NCBI RefSeq assembly: GCF_003991155.1
Contig: NZ_CP031297.1
DNA: 64,000 nt
Reading direction: 5' to 3' (one strand)
Source: Escherichia coli
GTDB taxonomy: Bacteria > Pseudomonadota > Gammaproteobacteria > Enterobacterales > Enterobacteriaceae
In this document: positions 18,001 through 33,000 of the stretch, piece after piece
How the letters are laid out: each line of letters starts with the position of its first letter
Numbering within the stretch: position 1 is the stretch's first letter
Made by a program: the position numbers

Positions 18001-21000
18001 AAAGTCATCAGTTGGCGATTCCTGGTCAAATAAGCGCTTTCACAAGCCGGTAGGCCTCGATGTATTGCTGGCCTGTACTGCGAGTAAGGTGCCTGAACAT
18101 CTGGTCGAAGAACTGAAAAGACGGGGCAGTTGATGCGTCTTTGAGCTTTGCACCCGAAAAGGGCAGTTTGAGCGTTCCTGTTCACACAGCTCTCGTGGAA
18201 CAATCAAAGTGAGGAGGGAATACCCTCCCACTTTCTCAGAGGCCTTCATTGAGGGTTGCTGAGAAAGTGAATTTTGTCCTCTCTGAGGGCGAAACGTGCG
18301 ATAGCTGGTCGCCAAAAACAAACAGCATTCAACCTCAGCCTAAGGGCGCACTGCGCCTGACAGGCTCTGTGTGCCCAAGTTACTTTAAGGAGCACACATG
18401 TCTCATCTGAACAATCTCAAATCCGTAATGATCTCTCTCGCCGCCGAACATAAGCTGCCTGAAATCTACCAGGATGACATCACTACCGATGTGGAGTCTC
18501 TGGATCGATTCGATGGTTTACGTCTGGTCTGGCTGTTGCGGTCTTGCGGCAGCGTATTGGTGCCAGCGGAAGTTGGCGTTAATCCGATCTATATCACCCA
18601 TTGGTTGTGGTCTAACCACGGTCAACAGGTGGTTCCATTCTCTGTGGATACCCGCACGGGGTTGATTGAAAAAATCGACTTCGAGCAAGCTGAAAAGCTG
18701 ATCATGCAGATGCCTTGCAACCTCTCTTCATTGCAGAACAAGGAATACTTGGTTGACCAGGTAAACCGAGTATTGCAACGAGGTTGTGAAATGCGTATCT
18801 GGGGTATCTTCGAGTCTCCAAGCTCGGTGGAATCCGTTGGTGGTTGGAAAGAGTGGCAGAGCTATTTCAGCTCTACTGGGAATCGACTGATGGCCGATTT
18901 CGTTGGTAAAGCCATTCGATTCACCAACCCTCGATAAATCGCCGTTCAACCATTAACCCTAATTAACCCTATGGGGCTCCGATAGCCCTGAGGGGACGGG
19001 GCTCCGCAATCGCAATAAGGAGTCCCTATGAAAAACCTATCAGCTTTGGAAGCAGTTCTTGACTACGACAAACCTTCTCGACGTTTTCTTGATGAGCTCA
19101 ACGAAAACCAGATGAAGGATTTGTCCGGGGAAATCTTCGCCAAGCTCTACTGGAGCAAGCGTAATCCCCAGTGGTACGAGAAAGACACCAATCGGCTGTT
19201 TGCACGACTTCGTTGGGTTCAGCGCATCATCAAGAAGCGCTTGAAAACCGGCAAGGTTAAACCTGAACTGACAGAAAATGGTTCAGTGATGGAGCGCTTC
19301 AACTTCCCTTATGGTGACACTCTCGATTTCTTCCATCGGTACTTGCGACATCCCAAATGGGAGGTTGTGTATCAAGAATCGGGGTGCAGTGCCTTTTGGA
19401 AAAATGAAGCAACGCTTGAGCTATGCACCTACTGCGAAGGTGATGTGGTCATGATGAAGGCTCCTGATGAAGCAACCTTCTTTCGTGATTGCAATCGCCT
19501 TAGCTGGTGGTATGCAGATAACGCTTGATCTTAATCCCTAACCAGGGGCGAACCGGCCCCTGATGGGAGCATGGTGCGCCCCATCTATGATGGAGGACGC
19601 CATGTTCAAATCATCAGTATGCTCCTACGAAAACAGGGGGCCTTACGGAAACAACAAGTACCGAGGCAACTGCTCGGGCTTTATCGTTAAAGACTTCATT
19701 GAGTCTTACATGAGAAAGCCGAACGGGCTGGTGGCAGACCCAAGTGTTGGGGGTGGCTCTAGCATCGACGTTGCCAATGAACTTGGTGTCCGTTTCAAAG
19801 GGACAGACTTGCATCAGGGGTTCAACCTGTTGCGGGATGACTTCCTTTCGTTCCTCGGAGAGCCTGCACACCTGATCTGGTGGCACCCTCCTTACTGGGA
19901 CATGATCCAGTATTCAGGTAAGCAGTGGGGCGAGCCCAACAAATGGGATATGAGCCGCATGAATTTGCCTGAGTTCGTTGAAGCCCTTGAGCTGGCCGTT
20001 ATGAATATTCATGACGCCTGTGAGCGAGGAGGGCATTACGGAATCCTCATGGGAAACCTGAGGCGCGATGGGGATTATTTCAACCTGTCCAGCCTTGTGG
20101 AACGTATCGCACCTGGGAAGCTGGTGGATGAGATCATCAAAACACAGCACAACTGTGTGAGTGACCGAACTCAGTATTCCGGGAAGCTGGTGCGTATCGC
20201 CCATGAAAAGCTGTTGGTGTTTCGTCGTAACGACGTTGCCTCATCGCTCTGTCTTCTTGCTGCCGTACACCGTCGAGCAACCAATATGGTTTCGACTACG
20301 TGGAAAGCTGCAATACGCCGAACCCTACAGGGGAAAACGTTGAAGCTGGAGCAGATTTACAAAGAGATTGAACCCTACGCAAAGCATCGAGAGAACAACC
20401 ACTGGCAAGCAAAGGTCAGGCAAGTTCTTCAAGATGCCAGGTTCTTTATTCGCATCGAGGTAGGTGTCTATGCACTTGCTGAGTAGCCCAACCGGGGCGT
20501 GACATCCCGGAGGGGATTGGTCGCGCTCATCAACAACAAAGGAGCGTGACCATGAACGTACAACTTCAAGCCAGCAACAATGTGCTGTTGGCGCAAATCG
20601 AAAGCAAAGGCCTCACTGTTGAAACGCATTGTCGCAGTGGCTTTTGTGGCATGTGCCGGGTTCGTCTACTCGAAGGTCAAGTGGCTTATGACGAGACGCC
20701 CATCGCATTTGTCAAAGAAGGGGAAGTGTTGGTTTGCTGCGCTAAAGCAAAAACCGATGTGACCTTGGAAATTTAACCCATCCGGAGGAGCCTTTCCTGC
20801 GGGTGGGGCTCCTCTATCCATTACGAGGAGAAACACTATGTCTATCAATACCAAAGTTGAACAAATCGCATACGGTCATGCTACCGCTCTAGTGCTCAGT
20901 GAACTGGGCCAACAAGAGAATTGGTGCAAGGCTTATGAGTATTTGTCTGAGTGTGTAGAACGGGGAGACGAACCTGAGGATCTGGTCGTTTGGCAACCGT

Positions 21001-30000: not shown

Positions 30001-33000
30001 TAATTCAAATTTCGGCTTTCTAGCTCTGGCCTTGCGCCAACGCCTGATCAAACGCTGGTCACTGATGCACTCTGTTCAACCGGAGTCTGTGTTGGAACAC
30101 AGCGCTGTTGTTACCCTGCTTTCCTACCTGGCTGGCAATATTGCCATTCAGCAAGGGAAGTCGGTGGATCTGGCAGTCATGCTTGCTCATGCTTCGTTGC
30201 ATGATGCAGCCGAGGTTCTCTGTTCGGATGTTGTAACACCGGTCAAGAAAGCAAACGCTGTTTTGCAGCGTGAGTTTGAACGACTGGAAAAGGCCGCAGA
30301 GGACAAACTCATCCAGACTCTTCCCGAAGAACTCCAGGATGCAGTCGCCATAGCCTTCGCTCCCGGTGGCTATGAACAATCACTGGTTAAGGCCTGTGAT
30401 ACCTACTCCGCTTACATCAAGTGCAAACTTGAGGTGGCCGCAGGTAATGGCCTTGAGTTCCAGGATGCTCTCAGCAAAATGGAACGTGTTGTTGCTCAGG
30501 TGAAATCGGACTTCCCGGAAATCGACGCTCTGGACAAATGGTTTGGTAACGGACTCGGCCATTCAGTAGATAAACTGCTGGCAGGGGGTAACGATGACTA
30601 ATCCAATCCCTGGCGACATCAAGATTAAGGACTTTGGCCGCGACCGGAAATTCCGTTCGGTTGATGAGCTTCAAAGCACTTTGTCAGAACAGTACAAAGG
30701 TCAGCATGTCAGCATCGTTTACCCTGCAAAGCCCAGCGGTTTACTCCGCACGGTTTTTGTCAGTGTCGATGATGCTGGTGGCGTGAATCGAACCTATGGG
30801 GACCAGTCTCCTGTCGATTTTTCTGCCATCAAAGATGACCTGTATGTACCAAGTGACCTGTAGGAGAGCACTAGCTATGGTGGTGATCATCGTAAACACA
30901 GGACACTATGAGTTTATCGGCCTTGGTGAGACCCACGGACAAGCCACAGAAGGGCTTTTGAAACGCTGGGACGAACACTGCGAACGTAATCCGGATGCTG
31001 AGTCTGGTTACATGCAGGAGCTGATAGAAGAAGGAAGCGCACAAGTTGTCGAGATGGAGCCCGGCTCCGCCGTAATTTACGGACTTGACGGCTAAGCCTT
31101 CTCAACTAACCCACTCGGGCGCATCATCCCGAGAGGGTGTGGTGCGTCCTAACCAAAAGGAATGCACTATGTCTAACTTTGAACAAGCTCTGGAGCGTAC
31201 TGACGGTAAAACACTGATTCTCAGCAATGGGAGTAAGTGGGCAGGCCAAGACCCGGACAGTATTCAGACTTTACTGGATGTCCTGGGTGACAACGTTCTT
31301 GACCCGATGTTTGAGCAGTATCACTGTTATCGCCCATACCCGTTTGAACCAATGGTGAGGACGGGGCGAAATGGCGAAATGTTCCAGCCTTGGCTTGGGG
31401 CAGCCTGCTTCTTTGGGAACTTCCTGACTGTCTCTCATGTTTTCAACATCATCACGAAAGATGACGGTGTTGTTGAGGCCTTAACAGAGGCGATCCGGAA
31501 GAATATGGCGACTGAACAGTACCAGCAGAATGCCTATGAGCGTTATGCCGGTTGGTTCTACGCTGAAACCAGCGAAGGGTTAAGGCTAGTCTCTCCAAGT
31601 GAGGCTGCCGACATCCGAGCTGGCGCAGTTTCAAAGCTGCGTTACCCAAGAAACTTCGAGGTTATGAAAACTGCGGTTCTCAAAGGTCCTCGATTTGATA
31701 CTGAATTAAGCCGCAAGGCTTCTTAACCCAAACATTAACCCCACGGGGGACATCGGTCCCTGAGGGGATGGTGTCTCCCTCTGAAATTAAGGAGATACCA
31801 ATGATTAAACAGCATTTTCAAAACGAACTGGTTAAGTGTGGATACCCGGATGATCTGACGATTGAGTACAGTCTCGGATACTGCCAGGGGGATGGCGTAG
31901 CCTTCTACGGGGATTTGAGCGTTGATGACGTCAAAGCTCTCATGAATCGCCTATTCAGCACTGAGCCCGGCCAAGTGGATGCTGTCAGCCGCGTGAAGAA
32001 CCTGATGGCACAGAAAGACATTGAGAATATGCTTTCTGTCCTCCGCGAATATGGTTCCTGTGACCTGTCCATTACTCGGAATAGTCACGGGCATCACTAC
32101 AGCCATTGGAACTGCATGAACATCGACGACAACGTGGACTTCACAGGGATCTTCCCTGATGATGATTCCATGATTGGCACCGGCATTGAAGGGATTAACC
32201 AGGATATGGTCGAGCGCTGGCAAGACCTCTGGGAACGCTTTGTGCTGGAGCTGGCGGATGATGTAAAAAGTCTTTCCAAGAAGCTCGAAGCGGACGGGTA
32301 CTCGCTGATCGAGGCCTCTCCATGCGAAGATGAAGTGGTTTGGGAACGGGCCACTGAAAACTACCTGGTGCGTGTTACTGAACTCCCTGAGCGGGATTTC
32401 GATATGGGCCACTGGGATGACGAAGTAAGAGACCAAACAATTTGTTCTATCCTGGAAGGGAAAGAGCGAGTGCTTGGCCTACGTGTTGAGGTACTCTCTC
32501 GTGAAAACGAGATTGTCCTGGGTGAAGAGAGTCTGCACGGCTTGACCGTTGCCAGTGATGACAAGAGCTACGCTGGCTACAGACGAGAACTTCTCCGGGG
32601 AGCTATCCAGCAAACCAGGGACTTTTTCTCTCGCCACCTCAAAGCGGCATAACAAGGCAGGGGGAAACCCCTGCTTTACTTCCCAAGTCTTCTTACTCAT
32701 GGTGAATACCATCAGTAAGCAGATTTTGTTCTCTTCGGAGAGCGAAAAGTGCGATAGCTGGTCGCCAAAAACAAACAGCAAATTAACGTTAATTTATTAA
32801 TCCCTGCGGGAGTCTATCTCCTGCTGGAGATACCTCCCGTTATTTCTGGAAGTATCCATGAACAAATTCCAAGACTTTAAGTTGGTTTATCGTCAAGGTG
32901 GTCGTCGCTTAGAGCGTGTCTTTACGGACACTCTTTACGCGAATGTGAAGCGTGTCGCTGACTCGTTTCCTCCGACCGTTCTTTGGCGCATTCAGCCAGC

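Follow-up and report, generated by a model that had tools for sequence, protein, structure and literature searches.

The DNA analysed in this work, referred to below as the window, is a stretch of 64,000 nucleotides (nt) of the Escherichia coli contig NZ_CP031297.1 (assembly GCF_003991155.1). As seen from the listing of its open reading frames (ORFs), a run of genes on the + strand spans two genes of deoxynucleotide metabolism, one for a small ferredoxin of the YfaE class and the other for an HD-domain protein of the YfbR class, and the same block also holds anti-restriction, recombination, methylase and primase genes. The two genes in question are:

20552..20776, + strand: YfaE-class [2Fe-2S] ferredoxin, 74 amino acids (aa) (vcrx101; WP_001102700.1), from Pfam, NCBIfam, cysteines and the ratio of nonsynonymous to synonymous substitution rates (dN/dS)
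29996..30601, + strand: YfbR-class HD-domain 5'-deoxynucleotidase, 201 aa (vcrx115; WP_000071870.1), from Pfam, NCBIfam, structure match and alignment

An 11-kb region around both genes is 100% identical to IncC (IncA/C2) plasmids, with 829 matching records in PLSDB, 647 of them at a coverage of at least 80%; chance is excluded by far, and the earlier note was right to assume a plasmid. In the numbering of pVCR94 the ferredoxin is vcrx101 and the HD protein vcrx115, and both lie about 77-87 kb from its coordinate 1 (mobI). The family assignment of the two plasmid genes is correct, yet already known from public annotation, as RefSeq names the ferredoxin yfaE and the HD protein yfbR. Our literature searches found no paper discussing a plasmid yfaE, and nothing on IncC together with yfbR or deoxynucleotidase. 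Plasmid-borne yfbR has been reported as the metabolic gene that co-occurs most often with resistance genes in E. coli plasmids (PMC9750983), and judging from the 829 IncC matches in PLSDB this association would simply reflect carriage on the IncC backbone.

Identity of the two proteins

The ferredoxin ORF has 225 nt, namely 74 codons plus the stop codon, so the coordinates and the Cx4Cx2C motif given in the earlier note stand while its length of 75 aa does not. A Shine-Dalgarno sequence AGGAG lies 6 nt 5' of its ATG. The protein matches Pfam Fer2 with an expectation value (E) of 1.5e-10 and the PHROG family 'ferredoxin', and it scores 93.3 bits against the NCBIfam YfaE equivalog NF007985 (cut-off 75), the second-best family reaching 34.6 bits. 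Over 69 residues it shares 46% identity with E. coli YfaE, and its cluster cysteines C27-x4-C32-x2-C35...C63 are kept in nine aligned homologues including E. coli YfaE. As far as its sequence can tell, the 74-aa protein is therefore solidly identified as a [2Fe-2S] ferredoxin of the YfaE class in which none of the four cluster cysteines is missing, and the resemblance to YfaE noticed earlier held when checked with hidden Markov models, with no unrelated family coming up in its place.

E. coli YfaE (b2236) is known from the literature as a [2Fe-2S] ferredoxin which maintains the diferric-tyrosyl radical of the class Ia ribonucleotide reductase NrdB. The plasmid protein shares with it the cysteine pattern CRxGxCGxC...CC and the small size, while its N-terminus is about 10 residues shorter. 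In E. coli and Vibrio cholerae the nrdAB operon ends with yfaE, whereas the plasmid copy has no such linkage and is instead cotranscribed from an AcaCD-dependent promoter with a DNA methylase and unknown genes. In fact no reductase gene accompanies it at all, just as the earlier note had claimed for the window: when E. coli NrdA, B, E, F, D, G, H and I were compared by tblastn with the window, with about 135 kb of the reference IncC plasmid peH4H and with a further eight mobile-element loci that hold the ferredoxin or the HD gene, no match came up at E<=0.01, and the annotation of peH4H lists none.

The HD gene is an ORF of 606 nt. Its product scores 130.4 bits against PF12917 YfbR-like (cut-off 25.9) and 128.5 bits against NCBIfam NF003009 (cut-off 122), matches the YfbR crystal structure 2PAQ at E=1.6e-26 and is 37% identical to E. 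coli YfbR over the full length. Thus the claim of a YfbR-like HD hydrolase was borne out as well, and the profile searches gave no unrelated family. The residues R20, W21, H35, H69, D70, E73, D78 and D135 of the plasmid protein correspond to R18, W19, H33, H68, D69, E72, D77 and D137 of YfbR, and are invariant in 19 relatives. In the structure paper on YfbR, H33, H68, D69 and D137 are reportedly the metal ligands and E72 the catalytic glutamate, while R18, W19 and D77 are said to select the substrate, with recognition of the 5'-phosphate, the base stack and the 3'-OH. On this basis the 201-aa protein is predicted, with a solid identity, to be a YfbR-class HD phosphohydrolase in which the metal-binding, the catalytic and the 2'-deoxy-5'-mononucleotide-selecting residues are all kept.

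YfbR is annotated as a dCMP or deoxynucleoside monophosphate (dNMP) phosphohydrolase. Compared with E. coli YfbR (b2291; 2PAQ/2PAR/2PAU), the plasmid enzyme has the metal-binding, catalytic and deoxyribose- and phosphate-recognising residues in common; it differs in that its gene has no alaA neighbour, in that chromosomal members of its sub-lineage are found only in Ferrimonas (55-59% identity), and in that the gene is activator-controlled and, as suggested by an overlap, translationally coupled to an 89-aa unknown protein. Similarities to other HD families are real but weaker (OxsA, E=1.4e-12; DatZ, E=1.6e-3; PHROG dATP triphosphohydrolase, E=5e-17), and they could mean that the protein is a broader phosphohydrolase of (deoxy)nucleoside triphosphates or nucleoside analogues of the DatZ/OxsA type, which acts on triphosphates or modified nucleotides. 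We give this only a slim chance, considering that YfbR is much closer, that the substrate-selecting residues are all kept, that the nearest chromosomal relatives are syntenic yfbR orthologues, and that purZ, mazZ and oxsB are absent from the IncC annotation.

Control by the conjugation activator AcaCD

Three features of the + strand define the transcription units to which the two genes belong:

18148..18168, + strand: AcaCD activator box in the promoter 5' of vcrx098, heading the ferredoxin-containing unit; 21-mer TTGCACCCNAAAAGGGCANTT; chromatin immunoprecipitation with exonuclease (ChIP-exo) motif at pVCR94 75267-75295
29518..29545, + strand: intrinsic terminator with a 12-bp perfect stem, a 4-nt loop and a T-run, closing the upstream unit; from the sequence and an inverted repeat search
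29549..29569, + strand: AcaCD activator box of the vcrx114 promoter; pVCR94 motif 86650-86678, transcription start site at 86713-86715 (about 29610 in the window)

The window holds exactly two copies of the 21-nt motif, at 18148 and 29549, where chance would give 0.04, and both boxes coincide with the AcaCD ChIP-exo motifs reported 5' of vcrx098 and vcrx114 in pVCR94, with no peaks in between (PMC4207636, Table S3). From this layout of boxes and terminator, the ferredoxin gene comes fourth in the first unit, and the HD gene comes second in the unit that follows. Moreover, lacZ fusions to the vcrx098 and vcrx114 promoters respond directly to AcaCD and to SgaCD of SGI1 (PMC8373056). In published RNA-seq, the + strand genes from vcrx098 to vcrx125 are near zero without acaCD and strong in the wild type and the complemented strain; for example, the expression in the wild type, the acaCD deletion and the complemented strain is 374/1/3151 for vcrx101 and 1178/50/6412 for vcrx115. 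Both genes are off without AcaCD and are therefore members of the conjugation regulon. Between 17.8 and 36 kb only 1 sigma-70-like promoter was found where 12.7 +/- 4.1 are expected from shuffles, a depletion which is consistent with AcaCD-dependent promoters driving nearly all of this 18-kb stretch.

Relatives, distribution and selection

An exhaustive HMMER search gave 111 representative relatives of the ferredoxin at E<=1e-10, all of them short ferredoxins. The closest ones with a readable context (53-80% identity; compared loci are denoted by L and a number) lie in mobile-element arrays, where the neighbours are a dcm3-like methylase upstream (L037, L040), CobT-VWA upstream (L038) or small unknown genes (L039), and none of these four contexts shows adjacency to nrdAB. 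With a YfaE-like protein of a Klebsiella plasmid as the query (E<=1e-10), PLSDB yielded 1,318 plasmids, about 1.8% of those sequenced, with 1,255 copies full-length and 1,257 of the plasmids predicted to be conjugative; roughly 536 of the 1,318 have Klebsiella/Raoultella-type backbones without the HD gene. Four yfaE neighbourhoods of Klebsiella and Moellerella plasmids were checked and hold no reductase gene: in the Klebsiella plasmids (L015, L016, L044) the orphan yfaE stands beside a RelE toxin, DNA methylases and a type II restriction-modification system, and in the Moellerella MOBH plasmid (L045) it lies 3 kb downstream of mobI, near the presumed oriT, with an FlhC-like activator also nearby. 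This last position is the sole hint that such genes may belong to a leading region, and for the IncC genes we make no such claim. The ferredoxins of L013, L030 and L015 pass the YfaE cut-off. Such orphan YfaE-class ferredoxins on about 1.8% of plasmids, nearly all predicted to be conjugative, are unreported in the literature searched, and their spread suggests that plasmid manipulation is directed repeatedly at the reductase of the host.

The homologues of the HD protein that came up in a search of a large database range in identity from 99% to 45%. In five species of Ferrimonas (L005, L006, L024-L028) a chromosomal relative, 55-59% identical, is located directly 3' of an alaA-type aminotransferase gene, as in the alaA-yfbR pair of E. 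coli; the Ferrimonas yfbR products are 33-36% identical to E. coli YfbR and the AlaA proteins beside them about 70% identical to E. coli AlaA. Every other HD context is a same-strand array of small genes with primase, methylases, RecT/YqaJ, CobT-VWA or tra genes, and these contexts are conjugative elements. Given the alaA linkage in Ferrimonas and the mobile contexts elsewhere, the plasmid lineage thus resembles a captured housekeeping yfbR of a marine gammaproteobacterium. As to the direction of the exchange, the Ferrimonas lineage may have been the donor, or its own yfbR may have been replaced by the mobile version. In phages, YfbR-type HD genes gave only 12 distant matches in 50,697 records, and the HD gene is therefore not a common phage gene.

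Two of the relatives carry a further system: after the primase, a type III restriction-modification pair (Mod methylase and ResIII helicase-nuclease) is found at 15784-20312 of L009 and 13391-17964 of L010. The HD protein of these elements is 79% identical to ours, and the position of the pair corresponds in IncC to the resistance-island insertion.

Since plasmids are non-independent samples, independent gene arrangements were counted in place of a co-occurrence statistic. Three different arrangements hold both genes. In IncC and in pAQU-like elements (L022; NZ_CP150866) the ferredoxin lies about 9 kb upstream of the HD gene; in L013 and L014 the HD gene is followed 14 bp on by the ferredoxin and then by a vcrx110-like gene, the primase and traFHG; and in L030 the ferredoxin abuts the primase gene, the HD gene being 3 kb further, past CobT-VWA. 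Two of the three are compact blocks which have shed the methylases and most small ORFs, and in all of them both genes stand among AAA5/CbbQ, RecT/YqaJ, CobT-VWA and primase genes.

Both genes are under purifying selection with a dN/dS of about 0.1-0.2: the ratio is 0.11 for the ferredoxin against the copy of an Aeromonas element, and 0.11 and 0.20 for the HD gene against its two closest non-identical copies, while in distant HD pairs dS is saturated and dN only 0.13-0.47. These values bear on a rival explanation, that the genes are passengers which were captured from a marine gammaproteobacterial chromosome and are carried with the backbone to no benefit of the plasmid. Such an explanation would agree with the lack of a phenotype in published screens and with the absence of each gene from some relatives, and the near-identity of the IncC copies reflects recent ancestry rather than selection. 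It is nevertheless rather improbable in our estimate, for besides the selection just described, the catalytic residues are invariant among elements 45-90% identical, the independent arrangements, adjacency included, are repeated, and both genes hold a dedicated place in an activator-controlled regulon.

Neighbouring genes in the co-oriented block

The other genes of the block to which the discussion refers are:

9743..17736, + strand: hde genes (AAA_5/CbbQ vcrx089, vcrx090, SSB, RecT/Bet, YqaJ/Exo), then DUF3150 and CobT/VWA; from Pfam and PMC7498323
18398..18937, + strand: vcrx098 homologue, 179 aa, first gene past the box; ORF with no Pfam family
19563..20486, + strand: orphan DNA methyltransferase 'dcm3' (vcrx100), directly 5' of the ferredoxin; weak Pfam N6_N4_Mtase and DpnI_C matches, PADLOC MTase_II
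23614..25239, + strand: C5-cytosine DNA methyltransferase 'dcm1' (vcrx109), in the AcaCD-dependent stretch; PF00145 at 101 bits, PMC7498323
27066..29519, + strand: DndC-like/PAPS-reductase-family protein, 817 aa (vcrx113), last before the terminator; DndC models at E=1e-35 to 1e-41, below the NCBIfam cut-offs
29721..29924, + strand: vcrx114, 67 aa, first gene of the HD operon; ORF with no Pfam family
30594..30863, + strand: vcrx116, 89 aa, its start overlapping the HD stop; ORF with no Pfam family
33579..35402, + strand: plasmid primase (Zn-ribbon, DUF7146, Toprim; vcrx122), at the end of the block; domain search, PHROG DNA primase

In the upstream part of the window TraN is also found. Of the hde products, vcrx089/090 are anti-restriction proteins, and ssb/bet/exo repair CRISPR breaks (PMC7498323). 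The hde operon of IncC and SXT/R391 elements (vcrx089-093) resembles our two genes in belonging to the co-oriented, AcaCD-influenced block and in having the same set of neighbours in related elements; it differs in that its anti-restriction and CRISPR-evasion phenotypes have been demonstrated, while the ferredoxin and HD genes went unflagged in that screen.

Several of the small neighbours are conserved with the genes they flank. Homologues of vcrx098 sit 5' of the HD gene in L009 and L011, vcrx114 is conserved 5' of it in L017-L019, and the primase adjoins the HD and the ferredoxin genes in L013 and L030. The start of vcrx116 lies 8 nt ahead of the HD stop codon and this overlap, kept in L009, L011, L019 and L020, suggests translational coupling. 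The order of methylase then ferredoxin recurs in L022, L037 and L040. A Pfam search of ten other small ORFs flanking both genes found no family, and the PADLOC catalogue of defence and anti-defence systems has no family for the ferredoxin or the HD protein.

In the DndC-like protein the match to DndC covers residues 55-464, the C-terminal part of about 350 aa having no family, and in L019, L021 and L022 the gene is only a short fragment. A second PAPS-reductase-family gene of IncC lies near repA (peH4H 3728-4843). Enzymes of the DndC/PAPS-reductase family require reduction of their cluster, and with two such genes on IncC, one of them in the AcaCD-dependent stretch, the ferredoxin might serve a redox enzyme of the plasmid, either the DndC-like [4Fe-4S] protein or the gene product encoded near repA, rather than the host NrdB. 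We regard this as very unlikely, a shade more so than a DatZ/OxsA-type activity of the HD protein. In fact the ferredoxin scores as YfaE and not as a generic ferredoxin, no PAPS-reductase gene is near it in L013, L030, L015, L016, L040, L044 and L045, and L022 keeps the ferredoxin though its DndC-like gene is fragmentary. An obligate link of the ferredoxin to the DndC-like protein or to the dcm3 methylase was also considered and rejected, the ferredoxin being found without either in L013, L030, L015, L038 and L039.

Two further observations concern the window at large. In the gap after the ORF 22201-22620, the segment 22596-22700 contains three tandem hairpins including a 56-nt near-palindrome (22626-22681), with a predicted RNA fold of -48.8 kcal/mol (z = -5.2 against shuffles) and no T-run after it; these hairpins may act in the processing or stability of RNA, or form a structure in single-stranded DNA. 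Beyond the primase, at 36000-64000, the GC content swings from 44% to 66%, and peH4H has IS5075, a Tn3-family transposase, a class 1 integron and resistance genes at the matching site; this part of the window is a resistance island rather than backbone.

Possible roles during conjugation

Taken as a whole, we understand both genes as genuine, functional plasmid copies of host-type deoxynucleotide-metabolism enzymes which are expressed within the IncC conjugation programme, a reading for which we would put the chances at about even. While transfer is switched on, in donor cells and probably also in new transconjugants, the plasmid ferredoxin would donate electrons to the host class Ia NrdB, and these electrons would regenerate its diferric-tyrosyl radical and so sustain the synthesis of deoxynucleoside triphosphates (dNTPs). 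The HD enzyme, for its part, would convert dNMPs to deoxynucleosides and phosphate. Jointly they may reshape the deoxynucleotide pool of the host while the plasmid primase, SSB/Bet/Exo and methylases are at work, that is, a tuning of host pools timed to conjugation and possibly a counter-defence as with the Dmp protein of phage T5.

Several points weigh against this reading. The HD gene occurs without the ferredoxin within the sequenced flanks of L002-4, L009-12, L019, L020 and L029, and the ferredoxin without the HD gene in L040 and in the Klebsiella-type plasmids; because each occurs without the other, the two are not an obligate pair, and they are therefore better regarded as independently useful parts of a shared accessory pool than as a two-component system. 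In transposon-insertion sequencing (Tn-seq) of the transfer of pVCR94 to a restricting and CRISPR-positive V. cholerae, only vcrx089-093 stood out (PMC7498323), and therefore transfer and defence evasion can do without either gene under those conditions. IncC hosts encode their own YfaE and YfbR, so that any benefit must come from dose or timing. When the chromosomal yfbR of MG1655 was expressed, benefits in growth, competition and antibiotic exposure were all absent and oxygen consumption was lowered (PMC9750983); the allele used was the chromosomal one, outside conjugation, to which the plasmid allele is only 37% identical. Finally, dNMP hydrolysis does not obviously help DNA synthesis, and a dNMP hydrolase provides no logical mechanism to counter dNTP depletion.

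The comparison with T5 Dmp deserves attention here. Dmp is a deoxynucleoside-5'-monophosphatase encoded by a pre-early gene and an anti-Kongming factor. It catalyses the same reaction, dNMP to deoxynucleoside, as is predicted for the plasmid HD enzyme, and it likewise belongs to a mobile element, where it is expressed alongside early functions of DNA handling; the difference is that T5 breaks down the host DNA while the plasmid does not. The HD protein was tried as a Dmp homologue and rejected: BLASTP gave E=9.5, the weak PHROG matches are confined to the surroundings of the HD motif, and Dmp has no Pfam domain. As the two are not homologous, the comparison is therefore an analogy only. The auxiliary nucleotide genes of phages (reductases with redoxins, and HD proteins of the DatZ type) are similar to the plasmid genes as enzymes acting on the host deoxynucleotide pool, with the difference that the plasmid carries only the maintenance cofactor of the reductase without the reductase itself.

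From this analogy comes a counter-defence explanation. Herein the HD enzyme would remove dNMPs, methylated ones included, which are freed as restriction enzymes, RecBCD or the plasmid Exo digest incoming or resident DNA, so as to starve or silence immune systems that depend on dNMPs as precursors or alarm signals, such as Kongming with its dITP signalling and PUA-Cal-HAD triggered by m6-dAMP, while the ferredoxin would boost the reductase against dNTP-depleting effectors. There is a precedent in Dmp, which is a proven anti-Kongming factor through removal of dAMP, and in m6-dAMP from degraded methylated DNA, which sets off the dNTP-depleting PUA-Cal-HAD. The genomic setting would fit too, as both genes lie in the AcaCD-driven block with the anti-restriction genes vcrx089/090, bet/exo and three orphan methylases and are kept in the compact versions of the block in L013 and L030; more generally, the idea of pool manipulation or counter-defence put forward in the earlier note is reasonable and in line with the regulon membership, the co-recurrence in divergent elements and the purifying selection. 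We consider this explanation doubtful, since homology to Dmp is absent, plasmids leave the host chromosome undegraded and carry no dNMP kinase, the defence-evasion Tn-seq flagged neither gene, the PADLOC and anti-defence context searches were empty, and the leading-region paper mentions no such enzymes. With the same reserve we would treat a more ambitious picture, which starts from the wide carriage of the orphan ferredoxin on large conjugative plasmids of several backbones and from its frequent company of a YfbR-type enzyme in the IncC/pAQU/SXT-like lineage: that of a conjugation-timed plasmid module seizing the deoxynucleotide pool of donor or recipient, in which the ferredoxin sustains the reductase and the HD enzyme destroys dNMPs that serve as immune signals, a plasmid counterpart of T5 Dmp.

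Significance

IncC plasmids rank among the main carriers of multidrug resistance, and their host range is very broad. If the two small activator-controlled genes do aid establishment, they would represent a plasmid function of a new kind, serving establishment or anti-defence, by which the dNTP supply is secured or the dNMP danger signals are erased. Conjugation would then be tied, in a way that is simple to test, to the nucleotide-centred immune systems reported from 2022 onwards. If on the contrary they are dispensable, they would merely be a correctly annotated pair of captured housekeeping genes. The question raised is why some 1,300 conjugative plasmids should hold a ferredoxin for reductase maintenance but no reductase, and why a predicted dNMP phosphatase is added to it in the IncC lineage.

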